Shown here one piece after another: positions 1 to 6,985 of a stretch of 7,024 nucleotides of DNA. Position numbers and translations under genes: made by a program. Positions within the stretch are counted from its first letter, which is position 1. Every line of letters begins with the position of its first letter. The stretch lies in IMG/VR virus record IMGVR_UViG_2547132272_000021, positions 1 to 7,024 of that record; one strand, 5' to 3'. Source of the DNA: a virus (taxonomy: Duplodnaviria > Heunggongvirae > Uroviricota > Caudoviricetes). The notes beneath the pieces are model-generated. The model saw nothing but the letters and a program-made list of their open reading frames with translations, was not told the origin of the DNA and ran no database searches.

Positions 1-82
1 CCATACCCACGGATTACGGGTGCTGGTCACTGCCCCTTCCAGCTTAAGCTCTCCGCTGAAATCCTCTCCCGGCGTGTTCCAG
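1..82 (-). pseudogene. Distal part of a host ORF interrupted by the insertion (exported-protein-like)
   Basis: The minus-strand frame is open from 82 to the window edge (...WNTPGEDFSGELKLEGAVTSTRNPWVW) and has no start codon of its own. It joins in frame to the 6981-7024 fragment once 83-6980 and one TCCAG copy are removed. Confidence 0.6.
78..82. repeat. Target-site duplication, left copy (TCCAG)
   Basis: TCCAG lies immediately outside the TG terminus at 83. An identical 5-mer lies immediately outside the CA terminus at 6980. The match does not extend on either side. A 5-bp duplication is the Mu transposition signature. Confidence 0.85.
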
Positions 83-87
83 TGTGA

Positions 88-109
88 TGGTTCATGATAA
101 ATACGAAAA
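88..109 (+). repeat. MuA-type transposase end-binding site, L1-like
   Basis: TGGTTCATGATAAATACGAAAA matches 18 of the 19 specified positions of TGNTTCAYTNNAARYRCGAAAR. It occupies nt 6-27 from the terminus, which is where I recall Mu L1 lying (TGTAT-TGATTCAC... in Mu, TGTGA-TGGTTCAT... here). Confidence 0.85.
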
Positions 110-215
110 GAATAATCCGGGATTAGGTTAGTAAAGACGGGAATAGATTGGAGTGAAAAATCTTTTGTATCAGCAGTTTGTTAGCGCAAAGATATGTGTT
201 GGTAAAGTTATCCCT

Positions 216-237
216 TCATTTCTGTGAAACACGAAAA
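216..237 (+). repeat. MuA-type end-binding site, L2-like (weaker first half)
   Basis: TCATTTCTGTGAAACACGAAAA matches the AARYRCGAAAR half perfectly, but the TTCAY half is degenerate, giving about 14 of 19 positions. It has the same orientation as L1. Confidence 0.6.
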
Positions 238-256
238 AATGAAAGGATTACGTGAT

Positions 257-278
257 TGTTTCACTAAAGAGGCGAAAA
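257..278 (+). repeat. MuA-type end-binding site, L3-like
   Basis: TGTTTCACTAAAGAGGCGAAAA matches 17 of 19 consensus positions and has the same orientation as L1. It starts 41 bp after the L2-like site, which resembles the L2-L3 spacing I recall for Mu attL. Confidence 0.75.
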
Positions 279-393
279 GATGGTTGATTGTATAAAGTCT
301 TCAAATATGTTCAAAACCGCTTCAATACTGCATTTGAAGCTGGTTTAAGGTGGGGCATAGGTGTCTGATAACAGAATTTACTATAAACTTTGT

Positions 394-403
394 TGATGCA
401 TCA
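394..403. promoter_or_regulatory. Perfect 10-bp palindrome TGATGCATCA (candidate operator)
   Basis: The sequence is self-complementary. It shares the TGCAT core with the 476-493 palindrome and with 505-509. Confidence 0.35.
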
Positions 404-426
404 TGAATTTAAATGTTTTTATTTAA

Positions 427-439
427 AATCAATGCGTTA
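427..439 (+). promoter_or_regulatory. IHF consensus match (WATCAANNNNTTR)
   Basis: AATCAATGCGTTA fits every specified position. It is preceded by an A/T-rich tract (405-426) and lies between the two TGCAT palindromes. Confidence 0.45.
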
Positions 440-475
440 GTGAATATTACATGATACATAGGTGTAAAGTAGCGC

Positions 476-493
476 ATTGCATATCTATGCAAT
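476..493. promoter_or_regulatory. Inverted repeat ATTGCATA-tc-TATGCAAT (candidate operator)
   Basis: It has 8-bp perfect arms and a 2-bp spacer. It lies about 25 bp upstream of the candidate promoter. Confidence 0.4.
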
Positions 494-516
494 ATGTGTC
501 GGATGTGCATAAACAC

Positions 517-545
517 TTGCCAACCAATTTTATTGTTGATAACTT
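517..545 (+). promoter_or_regulatory. Candidate sigma70 promoter of the immunity operon
   Basis: TTGCCA (517-522), a 17-bp spacer and TAACTT (540-545). Alternatives are TTGATA (536-541), 16 bp, GATAAA (558-563), or the TATAAA at 545-550. The choice between them is ambiguous. Confidence 0.35.
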
Positions 546-552
546 ATAAAAG

Positions 553-571
553 CACTCGATAAAGTCGAGTG
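553..571 (+). other. Stem-loop CACTCGA-taaag-TCGAGTG at or near the predicted 5' end of the immunity transcript
   Basis: It has a 7-bp perfect stem and a 5-nt loop, with no U-tract after it. It could be a 5' stabiliser hairpin or a palindromic operator overlapping the alternative -10. Confidence 0.3.
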
Positions 572-685
572 TCGGGCGTAGGAACCCGTGTAAGCACATG
601 GCGACACAAGACGCGCCAAGCGTCTTTTTTATTGTCGTAATATCAGCGCACCTGCATTCAGTGGCTTATGGTGCACCGTATCTAT

Positions 686-761
686 GGTGGCGCTGGTGGG
701 GCAGTCGAAAGGCTGGCCGGTTTCCTTGTGCGCCGGTATTCCTACCCCCGCCAGCGTCACC
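686..761 (+). ncRNA. P1 C4 / P4 CI-type immunity antisense RNA (about 76 nt)
   Basis: A 16-bp closing stem pairs 686-701 with 746-761 (14 Watson-Crick plus 2 G.U pairs). An inner hairpin pairs 717-720 with 733-736. Its 12-nt loop (721-732, TTTCCTTGTGCG) is complementary to 805-816 across the icd-like Shine-Dalgarno sequence. The single-stranded TTCCTAC (739-745) is complementary to GTAGGAA at 775-781 and 578-584. The size and position upstream of an Icd-like gene match the P1 C4 (77 nt) and P4 CI RNAs. Confidence 0.7.
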
Positions 762-774
762 GCCCCTTATGAGT

Positions 775-816
775 GTAGGAACTCAGGCGGTGACTCCTTA
801 AATTTGCACGAGGAGG
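775..816 (+). promoter_or_regulatory. Antisense-RNA target boxes (a2-like 775-781, b2-like 805-816) covering the icd-like RBS
   Basis: TGCACGAGGAGG (805-816) pairs with the RNA loop 721-732 through 8 Watson-Crick and 4 G.U pairs, and it contains the GAGGAGG SD (810-816). GTAGGAAC is repeated at 578-585, which is the a1-like copy. Confidence 0.6.
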
Positions 817-823
817 CTGCCAA

Positions 824-1021
824 ATGGCTACGACCCCAACCACTTTACGCTCTGAATTTACCTTTCATTTTCTGGCTGTTCGCCGTTCCGATCTGAACGA
901 CCGCCCACACCGCGAATCTATTAACGCACCTGATGAAGCAACTGCCCGTCGTATGCTGGCACGTGATTTTGTGTTGGTGTTTGCTGCCTGCATCCCTGCT
1001 AAAGGGGGTAAACATGAATAA
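824..1021 (+). CDS. icd: Host cell division inhibitor Icd-like protein (65 aa)
   Basis: The motif F.FLAVRRSDL..PH....A.DEA.ARRMLARDFVLVFAA is characteristic of Icd-like proteins of P1 and P4-type elements. A strong SD (GAGGAGG) lies 7 nt upstream of the ATG. Confidence 0.8.
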   Translation: MATTPTTLRSEFTFHFLAVRRSDLNDRPHRESINAPDEATARRMLARDFVLVFAACIPAKGGKHE

Positions 1022-1418
1022 TGTTGTCAAGTTTCCGGTGCGGAATAATAAAAAAGTTGCGAAATCGAGAGAAGATATTGCTGTAAATCTGTTTAAAGAT
1101 ATTGTTGCTGCTTTATCAAAACAGGCGCGTGACTATATTAATGATGGCGTTACCGGGATCAATGGATGCCTAGATGGTAATGGCGGATATGAAACCTTTC
1201 TATCCTCTTTGTTGCTTTATATTCGTGGCATTGACTCAAAAATTGGCCTGTTTAGTATGTCTCTTGATTCAATACATCCAATACTACATGATGCATGCAA
1301 TGACTTAACGAAAGTTATTTCCCTGACGGAGCGTTTTATTGAAAGTAGAGGCGTAATCGCAGAGGCGGCAAATGGAAAACTTACAGAAGAACAAACGCGG
1401 CAGACTTTCAAAAATTGA
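1014..1418 (+). CDS. Hypothetical protein (134 aa) in the ant/eps position of the immunity operon
   Basis: The ATG at 1014 is preceded by GGGGG (1004-1008) and overlaps the icd-like stop (ATGAATAA), which suggests translational coupling. I recognise no family for this protein. Confidence 0.6.
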   Translation: MNNVVKFPVRNNKKVAKSREDIAVNLFKDIVAALSKQARDYINDGVTGINGCLDGNGGYETFLSSLLLYIRGIDSKIGLFSMSLDSIHPILHDACNDLTKVISLTERFIESRGVIAEAANGKLTEEQTRQTFKN

Positions 1419-1734
1419 ATTGCTGCCTGAAAAGATAAAAAGGAAGCTTGATAAAATGCTTATCTCACGTAAGTATTCTCAGGCTGAAATTCTAAATATC
1501 ATAGATCAGGATATAGTAATAGCAGGGTGTTCAGAACTGGTCATATCCAAAACCGGATTGAACAGATATGCGATTAGTTTAATCAATGCTGTTTCGGTAG
1601 CCAAGAAGCATGGAGAAGTGTCTCGCCGTTATAAGCATGCCGAACTACACAGGAGACTTGATAAACTTGAATCAAAGATAGACAGATTAGGGACCAGACT
1701 TGAACGAGTGTTAGAGCTTCTCGAAAAACATTAA
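1372..1734 (+). CDS. Mu gp27 / DUF3486-like small-terminase-like DNA-binding protein (120 aa)
   Basis: The N-terminus KRGRLSKIELLPEKIKRKLDKML...SQAEIL...ISKTGLNRYA fits the R.SK+D.LP.E+R..+D..L......+..EI......+S+S.L.RY pattern of Mu-like gp27 proteins, followed by a coiled-coil C-terminus. An SD (GAGG) lies 6 nt upstream of the ATG. Confidence 0.6.
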   Translation: MENLQKNKRGRLSKIELLPEKIKRKLDKMLISRKYSQAEILNIIDQDIVIAGCSELVISKTGLNRYAISLINAVSVAKKHGEVSRRYKHAELHRRLDKLESKIDRLGTRLERVLELLEKH

Positions 1735-1741
1735 CTATCCC

Positions 1742-1767
1742 AAAGCCGCCCCGTGCGGCTTTTTTAT
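1742..1767 (+). terminator. Rho-independent terminator ending the immunity/terS-like operon
   Basis: AAAGCCGC-cccgt-GCGGCTTT gives an 8-bp stem that runs into a T6 tract, 8 nt after the stop codon. Confidence 0.85.
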
Positions 1768-1935
1768 TGTTTGGCACTCGCTGTACATATCAGCGCATAT
1801 TTCATGGAAAACGGTAAATCTATCTTCCCTAAAAATCCCGAGTAATCTCACAGCATCCAGAGCAAACGGAGATGGTTCTTTTTTGAAAAAATTATGTTTT
1901 ATCACAATCGGGGATAAACTTATTTTTGATTCCCA

Positions 1936-1970
1936 TATCCGCAATAATCGTTATCGTAACATTGCGGATA
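1936..1970. promoter_or_regulatory. 10-bp perfect inverted repeat TATCCGCAAT-N15-ATTGCGGATA (candidate regulator-binding dyad)
   Basis: It sits in the 287-bp non-coding gap (1768-2054) upstream of the Mor-like genes. It is interdigitated with CGTTATC (1949-1955) / GATAACG (1967-1973), and a tandem ATCGCGC-ATCGCGC lies at 1998-2011. Confidence 0.4.
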
Positions 1971-2054
1971 ACGTTAAGTTTGCTGCAAGCATTGGCTATC
2001 GCGCATCGCGCTCAAATGTACACAGGTATATGCAAAAGCTTAAGCGAGAAGATT

Positions 2055-2783
2055 ATGGCTAAACAAACCTTTAAAAATCTCATGTTAACGCCGCCACACA
2101 ATGATATTACAGCGATAAATAAATTCATTGTTTCTTCATGCTTTTCTCGTGATATCTGTGATGTTATGTCTTATATCGGTAAAATGGGATATGCATGTAA
2201 TTATAATGAAGTCAGTGAGCATGTGAAATTGATTGAAAAACAATTCCACGCAGTAAAACATGAACAGAGAGGCGAGTGTGAAATTGATGTTTTTTGTAAT
2301 GTCGCAGGCACCGCTCTCTTTAATGAATTTATATCTGTTTGCGGGAAACAGACGTTCTATCTTGATGCAATGAAATTTGAACCGGATTTTTTTAGTGGTG
2401 GCCCGGTTAAGCATATCCGCAAAACTGCTATTATCGCTTTATTGAGAAATGAAACAAAGATTCTTCCAGAAAGTGTGACCATGATTATGGGCGCTATTGA
2501 GGCGGCATTAAAAAAAATTGGAGTAGACCCACAAGAAGAAGTAAACAGCACGACAAAAATATTCATTGCAACAAAGGCATTTCTGGAAGTTGTAGGTGGA
2601 ATTCAGTTTTATTTACCTAAGGCCGACTCACTTAGTAGAATAATGAAAAAAGCAAATATATATGCAGATAGTTATGTTATGTCTCCTGCTGAACTAGCTA
2701 TTAAATATGGGGAGTCTGGTAAATCGATATACACAACAATAAAACATGTAGGAGCGGTTATTGGTAATCATGAGCAAAGTTAA
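2055..2783 (+). CDS. Mor/C-family transcriptional activator paralog with a roughly 130-aa N-terminal extension (242 aa; start uncertain, alternatively 2016)
   Basis: The C-terminal ~110 aa (LKKIGVDPQEE...VVGGIQFYLPKADSLSRIMKKANIY...MSPAELAIKYGESGKSIYTTIKH) aligns with Mu Mor as I recall it (LSRLGVDPAHS...LGGGQVYIPRGQALDSLIRDLRIW...VSELTTRYGVTFNTVYKAIRR). Confidence 0.65.
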   Translation: MAKQTFKNLMLTPPHNDITAINKFIVSSCFSRDICDVMSYIGKMGYACNYNEVSEHVKLIEKQFHAVKHEQRGECEIDVFCNVAGTALFNEFISVCGKQTFYLDAMKFEPDFFSGGPVKHIRKTAIIALLRNETKILPESVTMIMGAIEAALKKIGVDPQEEVNSTTKIFIATKAFLEVVGGIQFYLPKADSLSRIMKKANIYADSYVMSPAELAIKYGESGKSIYTTIKHVGAVIGNHEQS

Positions 2784-3192
2784 CATAAATAATGCACACA
2801 TATTACAAACAGGTCTGAGCCTCGGTATTGATGTAATGAGAAGTAATCTTCCTGAAGAGTTAAAACTTGTAGAACGTGCAGTTATTGAATCATGTAATGA
2901 TATTGGCTTAAATCCAGAGCATGAAATTAATGGTTTATCATTTATTGGTCGGGTCATATTAAAAATAATGGAACTACAAACCGGATGTAGTTTCATACCT
3001 GAGTATGCGATTGATTCATCCAGAATTATTTTTATTTCTAAAGTTGCTGCATATGCAGAAAAATTTGGAGCAGATAAAGCAGCCAAAGCCTACTCCATTA
3101 CAGTAGATCAGGTTACGGAAATGATGAATGAAGCAAGTATGTTTGTTTCCCAATTTGATGATTTTGGTATAGACAAGGAGAAAAGCCACTGA
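2770..3192 (+). CDS. Second Mor/C-family activator paralog (140 aa)
   Basis: LPEELKLVERAVIESCNDIGLNPEHEIN parallels LPESVTMIMGAIEAALKKIGVDPQEEVN of the upstream protein. G-C-S-F-IPE corresponds to the GG.Q.YIP motif, and the C-terminal AKAYSITVDQVTEMM is HTH-like. The gene overlaps the upstream gene by 14 nt. Confidence 0.5.
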   Translation: MSKVNINNAHILQTGLSLGIDVMRSNLPEELKLVERAVIESCNDIGLNPEHEINGLSFIGRVILKIMELQTGCSFIPEYAIDSSRIIFISKVAAYAEKFGADKAAKAYSITVDQVTEMMNEASMFVSQFDDFGIDKEKSH

Positions 3193-3246
3193 AACACGCT
3201 GTGATGTTGTTTTGTCTTATCGGCGGTGTTCTGGGTGCCCTGCACC

Positions 3247-3290
3247 TTTTTGAAGGTGCTACGGTGTTTTTGAAGGGGTTTTGAAGGGGG
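3247..3290 (+). repeat. Three direct TTTTGAAGG(G) repeats in the gap upstream of the gpI-like gene (candidate activator-dependent late promoter region)
   Basis: The copies are TTTTTGAAGG at 3247-3256, TTTTTGAAGGGG at 3267-3278 and TTTTGAAGGGGG at 3279-3290, with a degenerate TTTTGCA at 3291. The first copy lies inside the hairpin GCACCTT-tttg-AAGGTGC (3242-3259). I could not find a convincing sigma70 -35/-10 pair. Confidence 0.4.
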
Positions 3291-3300
3291 TTTTGCATCC

Positions 3301-4140
3301 ATGACAGAGGAACTAATGAATATAATCGCTTTATGCACTGATTTATCGGGTGATAAGACTCCTCCGGAATGGGTTGAGTTACTGCCAGCAGGACCGGAAA
3401 TTGAAGGGCGTGACGGAAGGAGCTGGACACTTAAAGATCCACAAAGCATTAAACAGGCGTTTTCGTGTCGCGGAATGTCACTTGTGGTCGATTATGAACA
3501 CTCTACAGAAGTGATTGCACCAAAAGGTGGCGAGGCTCCTGCCGCCGGATGGATTAATGACGTTGCTGTCCGTAATGATGGTTCTGTATGGGGAAGAGTT
3601 GAATGGACTCCACGGGCAATGAATTCCATTACATCCCGTGAATACCGATACCTTTCACCAGCGTTCCGTCATTCTCAGGATGGTGAAATACTGGAACTCG
3701 TTAGCGTGGCGTTAACGAATAAACCAAATCTGAAACTTACTGCGCTGAATACTCAGCAGACACTTAGCAAAATCGCACTGGCACTTAATATGGAGGAAGT
3801 TAATTCACTTGAAGAAGTGCTGACAGCGTTAAATAAAAGACAAGCTGAACAACATAGTCAGATTGTAAATGAATATATCGAAAAAGCTGTTTTCTGTCCG
3901 GCCCAGCGGAATATTCTTCTGTCCATGTGTTCAAGTGTTGGAGAAAATGCATTCAGGAAGTTTGCTGATATGCAGGAAAAATCGACGAGTAATTTTTTAC
4001 ACTTTGCTAGGCCTGTAAGTGTAAAAGGTAAAGAACCCCCGAGAACGCTTACTGAATCGCAACTGGCTGTTTGCCGCATTACAGGTGTAAGCGAAGAAGA
4101 CTATTTGATAGCTTTAGGAAAAGAAAATGAAAGATATTAA
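3301..4140 (+). CDS. Mu gpI-like prohead protease / scaffold (279 aa)
   Basis: PEWVELLPAGPEIEGRDGRSW...DYEHS...AGWI...VEWT..A...I....YRYLSPAF... is the Mu-like prophage I protein signature. The C-terminal third is helical and charged, which is scaffold-like. Confidence 0.85.
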   Translation: MTEELMNIIALCTDLSGDKTPPEWVELLPAGPEIEGRDGRSWTLKDPQSIKQAFSCRGMSLVVDYEHSTEVIAPKGGEAPAAGWINDVAVRNDGSVWGRVEWTPRAMNSITSREYRYLSPAFRHSQDGEILELVSVALTNKPNLKLTALNTQQTLSKIALALNMEEVNSLEEVLTALNKRQAEQHSQIVNEYIEKAVFCPAQRNILLSMCSSVGENAFRKFADMQEKSTSNFLHFARPVSVKGKEPPRTLTESQLAVCRITGVSEEDYLIALGKENERY

Positions 4141-5023
4141 TTGTGTAATTGCTGATGCTACTATCGCTTTTAACGCCAAGTTTGAATCAGGAAAAAAAGC
4201 CTACAATCCTGTACATCCAACGATTGCTTCAGAAGTAACGTCTTCATCGGCAGTTAGTGCTTATGGCTTCCTCGAAGATTTCCCGGAAATCAAAGAGTGG
4301 TTAAACGACCGACAGTTAAAATCACTGTCAACCCGTGATTATTTTCTGAAAAATAAAACGTTTGAAAGCAGCATTCAAATTAAACGTGAGGATTTTGAAG
4401 ATAATGATTATGGTAAGTATTCAATGGTTTTTGAACAGTACGGGCGCAAAGCGGCTGCATTCCCTGATAAGTTACTGTTTGAAGCTATGAAGAAAGGGCA
4501 CTTATCAGAAGGAATTGATGGGCATAACTTCTTTGCTACTGACCATCCTAATGGTGAAGGCGTTTATTCAAACCTCTATGGAAGCAATCCAGCAAAAAAT
4601 GCAGATGCAACGCCGTTATGGTACTTATTTGATGGTAGTCAGGGATTGAAACCTTTTATTTATCAGGTTCGTCGTCCAATGGCTGTAACTTCTGTTACTG
4701 ATTCCGGCGCTACCGATGTGTTTCTGAATAATCGTTTTCTGTTTGGTGTTGATGGGCGTCTTAATGTTGGATATGCAATGTGGCAATGCGCAGCGGCATC
4801 ATGGGATACGCTGAATGAAACCACATTTAATGAAGTGTACGACGGGATGTTATCCGTTAAGGGAAGTAGCGGTGAACCATTGGGAATCGTGCCTACTGTT
4901 ATTGTAGTCCCCGTATCGTTAAGAGCCGCAGCGGAAAAATTGCTGTTACGTCAGTATCTGGATAACGGGGAAGACAATCCAAATTATAAACGCGTGGAAA
5001 TTATTGTTTCACCATTTATTTGA
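4127..5023 (+). CDS. Mu gpT-like major capsid protein (298 aa)
   Basis: It is colinear with Mu T as I recall it, over segments such as YGFLEDFPEIKEWLNDRQ, FESSIQIKREDFEDN, DGHNFFATDHP, LKPFIYQ, NVGYAMWQ, VVPVSLR and NGEDNPNY. An AGGA SD lies 7 nt upstream, and the gene overlaps the gpI-like gene by 14 nt. Confidence 0.9.
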   Translation: MKDINCVIADATIAFNAKFESGKKAYNPVHPTIASEVTSSSAVSAYGFLEDFPEIKEWLNDRQLKSLSTRDYFLKNKTFESSIQIKREDFEDNDYGKYSMVFEQYGRKAAAFPDKLLFEAMKKGHLSEGIDGHNFFATDHPNGEGVYSNLYGSNPAKNADATPLWYLFDGSQGLKPFIYQVRRPMAVTSVTDSGATDVFLNNRFLFGVDGRLNVGYAMWQCAAASWDTLNETTFNEVYDGMLSVKGSSGEPLGIVPTVIVVPVSLRAAAEKLLLRQYLDNGEDNPNYKRVEIIVSPFI

Positions 5024-5029
5024 TAATTC

Positions 5030-5054
5030 GGAGGGGATTTCCCCTCCTGTTTTT
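5030..5054 (+). terminator. Rho-independent terminator/attenuator directly after the capsid gene
   Basis: GGAGGGG-attt-CCCCTCC gives a 7-bp GC-rich stem followed by TGTTTTT, 6 nt after the capsid stop codon. Confidence 0.75.
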
Positions 5055-5066
5055 ATGGGGAATATA

Positions 5067-6854
5067 ATGAGTAATAAGTTAAGCACGGAAATACTGATAA
5101 ATCTTACGGGAAATCTTACCGCTAAAGCACGACAGTACGGCGCAAATATGTCGCAGTTCGCCCGTAACCATCAGAAGGCAATGCGACTGGTCAAGGCCAC
5201 AACTGAATCCGCCACGCGTGGCCTTGATATGCTGGGTAATCGTTACACAGCGATGATTGCAGGTTTTGCAGGTAGCGCCATGATGCGTGAGTTTGCACAG
5301 GTTGATCGCCGGATGACCCGTATTGGTATTGCCGCAGAAAAGACGCGCGACGAAATGGCACAGATGCTGAATGGTATTCAGGACACCGCCATCAAATTTA
5401 AGGTTGATGACAGTGAACTGATAAGCGCGGTGGAAAAAGTTGGCACAATAACAGGCGAGATTGAGTTTGGCATCAAGAATAAGGATGTTATGGCGGCCTC
5501 CATCGCGGCTTCAGGAAGTGAAGGCGAGTTCATTGGCTCGCTGTTTTCCCTGTTTACGAAGTTTGGCATTAAGAATGAAGACGACTCACTGAAGGCCATG
5601 GACACCCTGAACCTGCTGGGGAAGGAAGGTGCCTATGAATTGAAAGACTTTGCAGAAAAATCCACCCGCGGGATGTCGCTGTATGCCGCTGCAGGTGGAC
5701 GGGGCGTAAAGGGTGTCAAGGAGTTTGGTGTTGTAATGGAATCTGCTGTGGATGCCACCGGGAACCGTGATACAGCAGCCACAACGGTGGAAAATTTCAT
5801 AAAAGATTTGCAGAACCCGAAAGTCGTCAAAACGCTTAAGCATAATGGCATTAACGTATTCGATAGCGAAGGCCATATGCGTTCACTGCCCGTTCTTCTT
5901 CAGGAGATTGCCACCCGCTCGGGAAGCAAAGGCTCGGAAATACAATCCAAACGACTGGATGAAGCCGGATTTCTTGATGACGCAAAAATGTTAATCAAAT
6001 CGGTAACGTCCGGTAAAGGCGCAGAAAACCTGCAACGCTATATGAAAGTCGTCGGTGATGGAAAAGGCATCATGAAGGATGCCGCATATGCCGCACAGGA
6101 CTTTACGTCTTCCATGCAGGCGCTGGAAACCAGCTGGAAAAAATTCTCTCATAACCAACTGGCAAAACCTGTTCAGGAACTGGCTGATGCCATTAACAGT
6201 GTCGACCAGAACACTGTCCAGAACTGGCTACAGGTTGCCAAATACATGGCGATTGCTGTGGGCGGCATTATCGCCGTGCGTAAGACGTACAAGCTCGGTA
6301 AAACCATCCACGACATCATGAATCCCAAAGAGAAAGGCAAAGGGATACCCGGCAGTATTACGGATGTTTTCGGTTCTGGCGTGATGCCAGTGTATGTGGT
6401 CAATATGGGCAGCGGTGGGATGAATGGTAATACCAGTGGTTTGCCGGATGCGCCGGATTCATCACGCAATCCCCGTGGACCAAAGACGCCAACACTGGTT
6501 ACACCACAAACGGTATCAGGATTTAATCTCCTTGACATGGCGCTATCTGCTTTCCCCAAAAATAAAGAGGAAGCTGACGCGTTAATCGCACGGGTTCAGG
6601 AAAACAACAACCGCCCGACGGTATGGACGGATATTAAGAACTGGTTTAACTCTCTGGAGAAAAAGAACATCGCCGCTCCATCTCCGTGGGATGTCCTGCA
6701 ATCCACACAGAACGCGCCATTCGTACCACAGCAATTGCAGGGAGAAATCCGTGTGGTGGTGGAAGGTGATGCACGCGTGAAAAGCGTCAGAGTGGATCAA
6801 CCTGGCGTCAGACTTAGTGCTCAGGCAGGGGTTACCAGTGTAGAACAAAGTTAA
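5067..6854 (+). CDS. Tail tape-measure-like protein (TP901/PhageMin_Tail-type core; 595 aa)
   Basis: The central region (FAQVDRRMTRIGIAAEKTRDEM...AASIAASGSEGEFIGSLFSLFTKFGI...NLLGKEGAYELKDFA...GINVFDSEGHMRSLPVLLQEIA) looks like tape-measure core repeats. The C-terminal part has a hydrophobic segment (YMAIAVGGIIAV) and a Gly-rich stretch. I chose the ATG at 5067 because GGGGA lies 6 nt upstream, whereas the TTG at 5004 would overlap the capsid gene and the terminator. Confidence 0.7.
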   Translation: MSNKLSTEILINLTGNLTAKARQYGANMSQFARNHQKAMRLVKATTESATRGLDMLGNRYTAMIAGFAGSAMMREFAQVDRRMTRIGIAAEKTRDEMAQMLNGIQDTAIKFKVDDSELISAVEKVGTITGEIEFGIKNKDVMAASIAASGSEGEFIGSLFSLFTKFGIKNEDDSLKAMDTLNLLGKEGAYELKDFAEKSTRGMSLYAAAGGRGVKGVKEFGVVMESAVDATGNRDTAATTVENFIKDLQNPKVVKTLKHNGINVFDSEGHMRSLPVLLQEIATRSGSKGSEIQSKRLDEAGFLDDAKMLIKSVTSGKGAENLQRYMKVVGDGKGIMKDAAYAAQDFTSSMQALETSWKKFSHNQLAKPVQELADAINSVDQNTVQNWLQVAKYMAIAVGGIIAVRKTYKLGKTIHDIMNPKEKGKGIPGSITDVFGSGVMPVYVVNMGSGGMNGNTSGLPDAPDSSRNPRGPKTPTLVTPQTVSGFNLLDMALSAFPKNKEEADALIARVQENNNRPTVWTDIKNWFNSLEKKNIAAPSPWDVLQSTQNAPFVPQQLQGEIRVVVEGDARVKSVRVDQPGVRLSAQAGVTSVEQS

Positions 6855-6856
6855 AT

Positions 6857-6887
6857 ATATGCTGTATATCACAAAATAGCAGCATAT
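6857..6887. repeat. Inverted repeat ATATGCTG-N15-CAGCATAT after the last gene, containing a possible degenerate third MuA-type site
   Basis: It has 8-bp perfect arms. The loop and right arm (6865-6886, TATATCACAAAATAGCAGCATA) share TCACAAAA with the R1/R2-like sites but match only about 10 of 19 consensus positions. The orientation is opposite to R1/R2. Confidence 0.25.
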
Positions 6888-6931
6888 TAATTCAATGCGT
6901 CCGATTTTTTATTCGGTGGTGTTTTGTTTTT

Positions 6932-6953
6932 TTTTCGCGCTTTTTGTGAGATG
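6932..6953 (-). repeat. MuA-type end-binding site, R2-like
   Basis: The minus strand reads CATCTCACAAAAAGCGCGAAAA, about 15 of 19 consensus positions. It directly abuts the R1-like site in the same orientation. The two 22-mers are 20/22 identical. Confidence 0.75.
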
Positions 6954-6975
6954 CTTTCGCGCTTTTTGTGAAACG
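6954..6975 (-). repeat. MuA-type end-binding site, R1-like
   Basis: The minus strand reads CGTTTCACAAAAAGCGCGAAAG, 17 of 19 consensus positions. It occupies nt 6-27 from the CA terminus, exactly mirroring the L1-like site at the other end. Confidence 0.85.
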
Positions 6976-6980
6976 CCTCA

Positions 6981-6985
6981 TCCAG
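6981..6985. repeat. Target-site duplication, right copy (TCCAG)
   Basis: It is identical to 78-82 and directly abuts the CA-3' terminus. Confidence 0.85.

Follow-up and report, generated by a model that had tools for sequence, protein, structure and literature searches.

A Mu-style left end on a 6,898-bp element that is probably a transposable satellite of Mu-like phages

We argue that positions 83-278 of the viral record IMGVR_UViG_2547132272_000021 are a Mu-style transposon left end (attL). The window, by which we mean the whole stretch of DNA that was analysed, is 7,024 nt long. Comparison with known left ends confirms the assignment, and binding of MuA is predicted from it. The element bounded by this end is 6,898 bp long (83-6980), with TG at 83-84 and CA at 6979-6980. 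It is probably a non-autonomous Mu-type transposable satellite of Mu-like phages, with 83-278 as its working left end. It lacks the genes for autonomous replication or an autonomous virion and always occurs with a Mu-type prophage, on which it presumably depends.

The ends of the element

Matches to E. coli sequences start at 83. A position weight matrix was made solely from the six real MuA sites of phage Mu and run over both strands of the whole window. Its five best matches are L1, L2, L3, R1 and R2, and all of them point inward (Table 1). They score 15.9-23.9 bits, the next match in the window scores 10.1 bits, and Mu's own sites score 14-26 bits. Mu's own L2 reaches 13.8 bits with this matrix versus 15.9 for the L2 of the element. 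Matches of at least 15.9 bits arose by chance with a mean of 0.023 in 300 Markov shuffles.

The left-end sites of Mu lie at 6-27, 111-132 and 151-172 from the terminus, and those of the element at 6-27, 134-155 and 175-196. L1 is in the position of Mu L1, and L2 and L3 are 41 bp apart from start to start versus 40 bp in Mu. The initial annotation had given exactly these positions and a common orientation for the three sites, and all three are indeed on the plus strand. It had also read the arrangement of a terminal site, a gap and a close pair as that of Mu attL. The real Mu sequence and a matching attR support this, as do the 5-bp duplications of nine independent insertions and the keeping of the layout in distant relatives (below). 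The Mu left end that it gave (TGTATTGATTCACTTGAAGTACGAAAA) is identical to AF083977, and the terminus of the element is close to it (19 of 27 bases identical). The alignment that it proposed can be made: attL of Mu and that of each of three Mu-like prophages align with 83-278, and with Mu the alignment extends beyond the sites themselves. Site-by-site orthology with Mu was rejected. The sites have 13-18 of 22 bases in common with those of Mu, and the best partner is not always the positional counterpart.

R1 and R2 abut, are inverted relative to the left end and have positions identical to those of Mu R1 and R2. Mu also has R3, an accessory site in the opposite orientation at 56-77. No R3 was found, there being no further matrix match above 10.1 bits in the window. 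The transposition enhancer of Mu is an internal operator region, acting in cis, to which the N-terminal domain of MuA binds. When the non-coding stretches of the element were compared by blastn-short with the early regions (initial 1.3 kb) of Mu and three helpers, nothing significant came up as an enhancer, and such a search would miss a diverged one. Mu transposition needs L, R and E, the enhancer (PMC3820752).

Table 1. Features of the element and its borders (positions in the window)
Feature	Position	Strand	Description
Target-site duplication, left copy	78..82	.	TCCAG, identical to 6981-6985
attL	83..278	+	5'-TG terminus through the end of L3
L1	88..109	+	22-bp MuA-type site, TGGTTCATGATAAATACGAAAA; nt 6-27 from terminus; 20.4 bits, Mu-site matrix
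CCGGGA-N15-CGGGA	117..142	+	Candidate pac signal or other left-end-specific site; directly inside L1
L2	216..237	+	MuA-type site, TCATTTCTGTGAAACACGAAAA; nt 134-155; 15.9 bits, Mu-site matrix
L3	257..278	+	MuA-type site, TGTTTCACTAAAGAGGCGAAAA; nt 175-196; 18.9 bits, Mu-site matrix
TTTGAAG-type words	299..339	.	CTTCAAA 299-305, TTTGAAG 333-339; just inside L3
isrK-like small RNA	552..630	+	Rfam RF01394, 59.4 bits vs gathering score 50
C4 antisense RNA (P1/P4-type immunity RNA)	680..767	+	Rfam RF01695, 77.1 bits vs gathering score 45
Icd-like protein, 65 aa	824..1021	+	RefSeq annotation of identical copies; PHROG 6928, 1743
orf134, 134 aa	1014..1418	+	Fast-evolving, dN/dS 0.49; no Pfam/PHROG family match
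gp27N, 120 aa	1372..1734	+	N-terminal third of Mu gp27 small terminase subunit plus short helical tail
59-aa ORF	1883..2062	+	Kept in all relatives; tblastn 51-98% identity in L008, L011, L012
Long Mor/C-family transcription activator, 242 aa	2055..2783	+	Pfam PF08765 on residues 138-241
140-aa ORF	2770..3192	+	tblastn 48-56% identity in L008, L012; dN/dS 0.14
Central repeat array	3243..3295	+	Resembles right arm of Mu strong gyrase site
Mu gpI-type head protease/scaffold, 279 aa	3301..4140	+	Pfam PF10123, E 8e-49
Mu gpT-type major head protein, 298 aa	4127..5023	+	Pfam PF10124, E 6e-89
Tail tape measure protein, 595 aa	5067..6854	+	Pfam PF10145, PHROG 973
R2	6932..6953	-	MuA-type site, nt 28-49 from right terminus; 18.7 bits
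R1	6954..6975	-	MuA-type site, nt 6-27 from right terminus; 23.9 bits, top match in the window
Right terminus and duplication	6979..6985	.	CA-3' 6979-6980; TCCAG 6981-6985

Motifs inside the left end and at the centre

The window has a single CCGGGA-N15-CGGGA motif, where 0.01 would be expected. The complete Mu genome likewise has one (31-56), as does each helper locus, and the motif always lies just inside L1. Among diverged copies of the element both GGGA blocks are invariant and the intervening bases vary. The pac site of Mu lies near its left end. It is plausible from the motif that the left end of the element contains a pac site as well. Headful packaging in Mu begins at the attL end (PMC2837660). 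The initial annotation had suggested the element's own gp27-like protein as the reader of such a signal. We keep a link between gp27 and pac as a putative one for this element and find no support for it as a general rule. The protein is the N-terminal third only, no gp27-like ORF is recognisable in the metagenome relative and a tblastn search gave none for the Yersinia relative.

The central array sits at 0.46 of the length of the element. It is 91% identical over 45 nt to an array in the helper (E 1e-11) that lies between the helper's head gene and protease gene, and the 20+11 nt spacing of the repeats is the same in both. It also aligns with Mu just downstream of 17879/80, where the gyrase cut site is annotated. 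The strong gyrase site of Mu has an essential, repeat-bearing right arm, and a central position is optimal for it (PMC10052514). By its likeness to that arm, the array may be a gyrase-site-like element that aids end pairing. It came to light in a comparison with the annotated late promoters of Mu, which gave no convincing match for a late promoter of the C-dependent kind ahead of the capsid genes.

In the helpers, words of the TTTGAAG type lie at 204/215 from the left end. From lineage to lineage, these words change together with the repeat unit of the central array. That the unit at the centre switches along with a motif located about 205-250 bp in from the left terminus hints at a sequence-specific link between left end and centre in Mu-type genomes.

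RNAs and genes

The isrK-like RNA has a terminator-like site at 608-626. Both it and the C4 RNA are also present in relative L012. Neither Mu nor the helper prophages have a C4/P4-type RNA immunity module among their annotated features.

gp27N covers positions 1-64 of the 173 in the Pfam PF11985 profile and belongs to PHROG 426 (terminase small subunit). The helper counterpart has 193 aa, and gp27N shows 45% identity to its residues 1-70. The Mor/C-family activator falls in only 3 clusters among 5.8 billion proteins. The gpI-type protease is short, with 279 aa versus 320 aa in the helper and 361 aa in Mu, and is 33% identical to that of the helper. The gpT-type head protein is 43% identical to the helper's and 36% to Mu's. 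The tape measure has a different affinity, being 88-90% identical to a protein of an ETEC1732-type Mu-like prophage and 46% to those of the co-resident helpers.

By ORF list, Pfam and PHROG there is no transposase (A) and no B in the element. The same three sources gave no portal, large terminase or head-completion gene, and no tail gene besides the tape measure. Pfam and PHROGs gave no integrase, no alpha primase/helicase and none of Sid, Psu and Delta.

Copies, carriers and helpers

Nine copies were found at nine different sites, each with its own perfect 5-bp duplication. The target preference of Mu is N-Y-(G/C)-R-N, and 7/9 of the duplications fit it; a count of 6/8 gave P=8.5e-5. One copy is truncated by IS1. 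Insertions disrupt a LysR regulator, puuC, ddpC, yiaK and flagellar genes.

All of the E. coli carriers (9/9) also hold a Mu-type prophage, versus 94 of 5,426 genomes overall. The hypergeometric P for this co-occurrence is 1e-16, or about 5e-6 when the carriers are counted as three independent lineages, which is roughly what they are. One clone shows mobility. Its 17 genomes have the helper fixed beside yehR, and 7 of them have the element, at six or more sites. It must be noted that the helper in UMNF18 lacks the genes between gpT and the tail sheath, so co-residence is no guarantee of a working helper. The ends of the element also differ from those of the co-resident helpers (19/27 identical at the terminus), so we assume recognition by the helper MuA from the consensus match alone. 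The MuA proteins of two helpers are WP_142439071.1 (RIVM_C037166 prophage) and WP_001209536.1 (UMNF18).

The element is rare and varies at the level of strains. Scans of one-genome-per-species contigs with a protein pattern and an end pattern did not find it. Among 50,697 phage records, megablast and blastn turned up nothing relevant for the window or its left end, and a Yersinia-type end gave nothing relevant among phage records either. The occurrence in unrelated strains and genera hints at packaging and transfer, and so does an IMG/VR contig that ends at the termini of the element: this assembly contig of 6,691 bp terminates exactly at TG and CA.

Relatives and selection

A relative in Yersinia is 6,475 bp long and has the duplication ACTAC. 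Both it and a metagenome relative have TG...CA termini, L1 at 6-27, L2 at 133-154 and R1/R2 at 6-27/28-49. The 22-bp site sequence in the relatives differs from that of the element (the Yersinia-type site is AATGAGAAAC) and the geometry is unchanged. The relatives retain gene order and size at roughly 40-75% protein identity, and the size stays at 6.5-6.9 kb across Escherichia, Yersinia and the metagenome. A pattern search of IMG/VR for a Yersinia-type helper gave five more loci with that terminus, none with Mu or satellite proteins. One of the five carries an RCC1-repeat gene.

Diverged copies of the element differ at none of the 66 positions of L1-L3 (0/66), versus 5.7% of positions element-wide. 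All nine ORFs are intact in a diverged copy, and dN/dS is 0.12-0.26 in eight of them and 0.49 in orf134. Purifying selection thus acts on the genes for the capsid protein, the protease and the tape measure.

Proposed mechanism and alternatives

We propose that MuA and MuB would be supplied in trans by a co-resident or infecting Mu-like phage. MuA would bind the three left-end sites (L1-L3) and the two right-end sites (R1 and R2) and pair the ends. It would then nick at the TG/CA termini and join the ends to a target whose strands are cut 5 bp apart, which would account for the 5-bp duplications seen. Repeated replicative transposition during lytic growth of the helper would amplify the element, and the gyrase-site-like array at the centre may help to bring the ends together. 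CCGGGA-N15-CGGGA beside L1 would be the likely start of headful packaging. The capsid would be redirected: heads for the element would be made from the capsid protein and short protease/scaffold that it encodes, and the other virion parts would come from the helper. The antisense-RNA module of the P4/P1 type would keep the element silent until the helper enters lytic growth. Counting against a satellite are the tape measure, which is unlike those of the co-resident helpers, and the absence of enhancer similarity and of R3.

One can imagine a scenario where the element is a transposon that moves on helper MuA/MuB and is not packaged. Its structural genes would then sabotage helper assembly, as an anti-Mu defence or interference, and there would be no functional pac. 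The DNA-binding third of a small terminase subunit, which is what gp27N is, would be expected of a dominant-negative competitor. A tape measure of another type than the co-resident helper's fits as well, as does the lack of a portal, a large terminase and a head-completion gene, and packaging of the element is itself something we infer. However, the element keeps, at the same place beside L1, a motif that Mu and the helpers each have only once. The size is also steady across the three sources, the capsid and protease genes are complete and under purifying selection, and spread across unrelated strains and genera requires a transfer route. We judge this scenario unlikely. A decaying deletion remnant of a Mu-like prophage, with ends that are relics without present function, is very improbable. 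It would make sense of an element with only a subset of Mu-like genes and of the IS1-truncated copy, but the proteins are just 33-45% identical to their helper homologues, so this is not a recent deletion derivative. Nor does decay sit well with nine intact ORFs under the dN/dS values given above, with the gene order and size kept in relatives, or with six or more sites in one clone, each with a fresh 5-bp duplication. The P4-type RNA immunity module, which is not annotated in Mu or the helper prophages, speaks against a remnant as well.

The ends could in principle belong to another family of DDE transposons that shares TG...CA termini, 5-bp duplications and several 22-bp sites per end, for instance a Tn7-like one, and be served by a transposase such as TnsB. 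One end of Tn7 has three sites with spaces between them, the other has sites packed close together, and Tn7 makes 5-bp duplications, all of which fits the element. Yet a matrix made from Mu alone gives the sites 16-24 bits, like the 14-26 bits of Mu's own, and the left end aligns with Mu attL outside the sites too. The co-occurrence is with Mu-type prophages, and the insertion sites are scattered with no fixed attachment site. We give a Tn7-like origin hardly any chance. That A-rich sequence merely happens to resemble the MuA consensus has nothing in its favour except the degeneracy of that consensus. Five matches were observed versus 0.02 expected, with Mu-like placement and orientation at both ends. 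The shuffles, the target duplications and the conservation in relatives already refute it, and we regard it as practically excluded. A satellite that transposes on Mu functions is the reading that we prefer.

We also lean, with more caution, towards a broader claim. The element would belong to a natural family of 6.5-6.9-kb transposable satellites in Enterobacterales that have neither integrase nor replicase. Its members would mimic all the cis sites that a Mu-like helper has, namely attL, attR, the motif on the pac side and the gyrase-site array at the centre, and helper MuA/MuB would therefore integrate and replicate them. Their heads would be made with a capsid protein of their own and a scaffold of reduced length. 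Lineages would have adapted the sequence of the 22-bp sites to the transposases of different helpers and left the geometry as it was. The motif link between left end and centre would be a further layer.

Implications and comparison with known systems

To our knowledge, all described satellites (P4-like, PICI, cfPICI, PLE and PICMI) encode the integrase by which they integrate, and most also have replication functions of their own. The literature searched, whose coverage leaves out most subscription journals, held no earlier description of Mu-dependent or transposable satellites. If our reading is true, transposition joins the known ways of exploiting a helper, and laboratory mini-Mu has a natural counterpart. 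The element would also be a 6.9-kb natural substrate for the cis-site needs of Mu transposition, end pairing and packaging. It is informative in having no R3, no recognisable enhancer and a longer L1-L2 spacer while keeping a gyrase-site-like array. These elements disrupt genes, and they differ between genomes of a single clinical E. coli clone, and are thus a source of very recent genome change. If they are packaged by headful, adjacent host DNA would be carried along too.

The element resembles Mu and D108-type Mu-like prophages in its TG...CA termini, in L1 at 6-27 followed by a long spacer and L2/L3 about 40 bp apart, and in R1 and R2 abutting at 6-27 and 28-49. It also shares with them 22-bp sites that end in CGAAAR, CCGGGA-N15-CGGGA beside L1, 5-bp duplications with the N-Y-S-R-N bias and a gyrase-site-like array near the midpoint. 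Unlike Mu, it has an L1-L2 spacer that is 23 bp longer, no R3 and no detectable operator/enhancer. Its ends are only about 70% identical to those of Mu, and at 6.9 kb versus 34-37 kb it encodes neither A nor B.

Laboratory mini-Mu, whose replication has been described (PMC10052514), likewise consists of two Mu ends with little between them. It needs A and B in trans and is packaged from the left end by helper functions, and both would apply to the element. In contrast, the element occurs naturally, is under selection and has been conserved across genera. It also has its own immunity RNA module, late activator, capsid, protease and tape-measure genes.

With P4 the element shares an antisense RNA immunity region of the C4/CI type, an isrK-like RNA and Icd-like/ash-type annotations. 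Both have a small genome with a dedicated transcription activator, and the dependence of P4 on a helper myovirus would have its parallel here. Unlike P4, the element has no integrase, primase/helicase, Sid, Psu or Delta. It transposes to scattered sites with 5-bp duplications instead of using a tRNA attachment site, and it has its own major capsid protein.

Capsid-forming PICIs (cfPICIs) are described as encoding their own major capsid protein and protease, with no remodelling of those of the helper (10.1101/2022.09.08.507074). The element is alike in encoding both proteins. A cfPICI has an integrase, a replication module and a full head and packaging set, and takes only tails from its helper. 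The element instead has Mu ends, and its head genes are a capsid gene, a protease/scaffold gene and a terminase fragment, to which it adds a tape measure.

Mu-type ends

The initial annotation had described the left end as a Mu-like attL. Mu's sites were located in the real genome (AF083977). They lie at nt 6-27 (L1), 111-132 (L2) and 151-172 (L3) from the left terminus, and at 6-27 (R1), 28-49 (R2) and 56-77 (R3, inverted) from the right. A weight matrix was made from these six sites alone and both strands of the entire window were scanned. The top five matches are L1, L3, L2, R1 and R2, and they score 15.9-23.9 bits. Mu's own sites score 13.8-25.6 bits, the next match in the window scores 10.1, and shuffled sequence gives 0.023 matches of such strength per window. 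The MuA-type sites are confirmed, far beyond chance. The three at the left, all on the + strand, fall exactly where they had been placed, and the Mu terminus quoted with them is letter-perfect against AF083977 (the window matches 19 of its 27 bases). L1, L2 and L3 also align with the left ends of the Mu-like prophages that reside in the same cells, which we call helpers; the L1-L2 spacer is 23 bp longer in the element.

The matrix scan of both strands of the window found no R3, and no operator-like or enhancer-like similarity was found in the element. The Mu literature counts the enhancer as a third cis site (PMC3820752). The segment belongs to the Mu-type transposon-end family, and the missing R3 and the apparent lack of a recognisable enhancer are its two main anatomical departures from Mu.

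Gene content

Neither a transposase nor a MuB-like ATPase is encoded in the 6,898-bp element. The tape measure protein shares 88-90% identity with its counterpart in the ETEC1732-type Mu-like prophage lineage but only 46% with those in the co-resident helpers. Between element copies this gene has a synonymous divergence of 0.24, several times the value for its neighbours, a hint of exchange with phages. In STEC388 (L002 10983-11700) the tape measure and all that lies to its right in the element have been replaced by an IS1. The isrK-like and C4 RNAs and a weak c4-a1b1 target match make up a P1/P4-type immunity module just inside the Mu-type left end, and the metagenome relative L012 has one too (692-894). 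The 'ash family protein' CDS of RefSeq copies (about window 642-896) overlaps the C4 RNA and may be a mis-called ORF.

Features of the element, helper loci and relatives, in window positions unless a locus is named
Feature	Position	Remark
Duplication TCCAG	78-82, 6981-6985	flanks the element on both sides
Element	83-6980	TG start, CA end
attL	83-278	first feature, left to right
L1	88-109	
CCGGGA-N15-CGGGA	117-142	directly inside L1
L2	216-237	
L3	257-278	
Non-coding stretch		AT-rich, after attL
7-mer, left end	299-339	L007 (helper) 2017-2035; equivalents in L008, L012
Immunity module	539-767	P1/P4-type
isrK-like RNA	552-630	as in P1/P4 immunity regions
C4 antisense RNA	680-767	as in P1/P4 immunity regions
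Icd-like ORF		small, after C4 RNA
orf134	1014-1418	134 aa, function unknown, follows Icd-like ORF
gp27N		120 aa, only the N-terminal third of Mu gp27 small terminase subunit
59-aa ORF		after gp27N
Mor/C-family activator		long, after 59-aa ORF
ORF without known function		between activator and protease/scaffold gene
7-mer, central array	3243-3295	L007 17805-17850; equivalents in L008, L012
Protease/scaffold		Mu gpI-type, shorter than helper's
Major capsid protein		Mu gpT-type, after protease/scaffold
Tape measure protein	5067-6854	after capsid gene
R2	6932-6953	
R1	6954-6975	
attR		last feature, right end
Helper A gene variable starts	L005 3983-4175, L006 3218-3400, L007 3092-3280	

Copies and helper prophages

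The left end was found in nine of 5,426 complete E. coli genomes, at 14 places. Eight further full-length copies were retrieved, and with the window these nine copies lie at nine different places, each with its own perfect 5-bp duplication. The places are a LysR regulator gene, puuC, between flgH and flgI, ddpC, a lyxose isomerase gene, yiaK, yddA, one intergenic site and the window's own site. Mu prefers N-Y-(G/C)-R-N as target. Seven of the nine duplications have this form, for which chance would give 1 in 8. Of the 5,426 genomes only 94 contain Mu-type transposase DNA, and all nine element carriers are among them (hypergeometric P ~1e-16, or ~5e-6 counting carriers as three independent lineages). 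One human-associated clone of 17 genomes has the same Mu-like prophage at the same site adjoining yehR. The element is in seven of them, at six or more different sites with one or two copies each, and is absent in ten. Such a spread within one clone means that it moved or arrived repeatedly, very recently, in cells with a Mu-type transposase.

The co-resident prophages are 31-34 kb, have A and B genes and their own 5-bp duplications, and their ends are almost identical to Mu's. In the helpers of the three carrier lineages, the A gene departs from the query over its first 154-192 nt only; past that it is 96.7-98.7% identical. The corresponding N-terminal part of the protein carries the enhancer and immunity specificity, with the end-binding domains behind it. 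The helpers probably differ in enhancer/immunity specificity and have the same end-binding domains. This variable start suggests that what the element relies on may be end recognition, not a matched enhancer, and the lack of enhancer-like similarity in the element is consistent with that. It must be added that the helper of UMNF18 (L006 20160-20840) no longer has the genes that lay between gpT and the tail sheath and is probably defective.

Relatives and age

Among 5.8 billion proteins the long Mor-family protein forms just three clusters, and through this rare protein four relatives were reached. The Yersinia enterocolitica relative (L008) is 6,475 bp and sits in a dctPQM operon with the duplication ACTAC. 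L012, a metagenome contig (IMG/VR, 1-6691), is exactly one element, with TG at base 2 and CA as its last base. An assembly that stopped at the element termini is expected if one element adjoins many different flanks. L010, a 2.9-kb contig, has a homologue of the long protein that is 40% identical and yielded nothing further. L011, on another IMG/VR contig, is a close E. coli-type variant (gp27N 93%, gpT 99% identical). It has an IS3-family insertion and adjoining phage lysis genes (4540-5140, 6451-7724), and the contig stops short of its right end.

The Yersinia and metagenome elements have the window's gene order at 39-74% protein identity. Both retain L1 at 6-27, L2 at 133-154, R1 at 6-27 and R2 at 28-49, but their sites end in AATGAGAAA(C/A) where those of the window end in ACGAAAA. 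Conserved site geometry with a changed recognition sequence is what would be expected if the lineages were tuned to different helper transposases. The left-end repeats of L011 differ again (TTATTCAAGATAA), and the block TAGTAAAGACGGGAATAG, 3' of L1 in the window, is kept there. Five IMG/VR loci (L020, L022-L025) carry the Yersinia-type terminus TGTTATGAG(T/C)CAC...GAATGAGAAAC (for example L022 1-4014 and L024 4330-6895). Mu and satellite proteins are absent from all five, and no Yersinia-type helper was found there. These may be other cargo on similar ends; L022 encodes an 832-aa RCC1-repeat protein inside its end.

One can imagine that the element is a recent deletion remnant of a prophage. 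However, in the diverged copy all nine ORFs are intact with dN/dS of 0.12-0.26 (orf134 excepted), and its capsid, protease and terminase-fragment proteins share only 33-45% identity with their helper counterparts, which rules this out. On the same grounds of selection and divergence the element is an old, maintained lineage. L1-L3 have no variable positions out of 66 (P ~0.02) where E. coli copies differ at 5.7% of positions, and the adjoining spacers do vary among these copies. The gene orf134 changes far more quickly than those around it (dS 0.26, dN/dS 0.49), a pattern that would suit a protein in conflict with the helper.

Candidate packaging and gyrase sites

It had also been proposed that attL may hold a packaging signal read by the gp27-like protein. 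CCGGGA-N15-CGGGA is found a single time in the window (0.01 expected), in the whole Mu genome (31-56) and in each helper locus, with position and strand constant throughout. Groenen and van de Putte in 1985 and Harel et al. in 1990 reportedly placed pac at roughly nt 30-60 of the Mu left end. Since it is single and fixed in place and strand in the element, Mu and helpers, the motif is a strong candidate for a left-end-specific signal, pac being the obvious one. Mu packaging is headful and begins at attL (PMC2837660). The proposed reader is less clear: gp27N is without the C-terminal two thirds of the small terminase and so might just as well act as a competitor. No gp27-like ORF is recognisable in the metagenome relative, and tblastn found none in the Yersinia relative. 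Elsewhere, AAATCCCGAGTAATC (window 1833-1847) is the reverse complement, at 14 of 15 bases, of the helpers' left-end nt 45-59, inside the candidate pac region; this likeness is not significant alone (E 0.3).

The strong gyrase site of Mu is found at the centre of the genome, between G and I, and central placement is optimal; its essential part is the right arm with repeated bending motifs, and the site of a related prophage can replace it (PMC10052514). The element has three repeats, TTTTTGAAGG...GTTTTTGAAGGGGTTTTGAAGGGGG, at 3243-3295, immediately upstream of its protease gene. Helpers have a near-identical array between head gene and protease gene (91% over 45 nt; E 1e-11 against the 33.7-kb helper). 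Element and helper arrays align with Mu just downstream of the annotated strong-gyrase-site cut (17879/80), and all three have repeat spacing of 20 + 11 nt. As a fraction of length the array lies at 0.49 in Mu, 0.475 in the helper, 0.46 in the element and 0.42-0.44 in the Yersinia-type elements, whose arrays are of TTTAAAC-type repeats. With this array the element thus appears to have a small version of Mu's strong gyrase site.

The 7-mer of this array recurs just inside L3, ~205-250 bp from the left terminus, and the two places change in step. The E. coli helpers and the element have TTTGAAG, and both Yersinia-type elements have TTTAAAC. In each of these last two all four occurrences are in the left-end and central clusters (~0.8 expected). 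This co-variation suggests a sequence-specific link between left end and centre. No factor that binds at both is known to us.

Proposed mechanism and comparison with known systems

The element has Mu-type ends, target duplications, recent mobility, a Mu-type prophage in all carriers and maintained genes. We propose that helper MuA would bind L1-L3 and R1-R2 and, with MuB, integrate the element and drive its replicative transposition. The antisense-RNA module would hold the element operon off in the prophage state, and the Mor-family activator would switch on the capsid operon. Packaging would begin at the left end, into heads made of the gpT and shortened scaffold that the element itself encodes. 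The helper would supply the portal, the large terminase and the tail.

No description of a satellite relying on helper-mediated transposition was found in the literature accessible to us, which omits most subscription journals. The element has the same immunity RNAs as P4 and, like cfPICIs, encodes its own capsid protein. However, it is without the integrase, replicase and complete head module that define those groups. In the way it would work it is like a laboratory mini-Mu.
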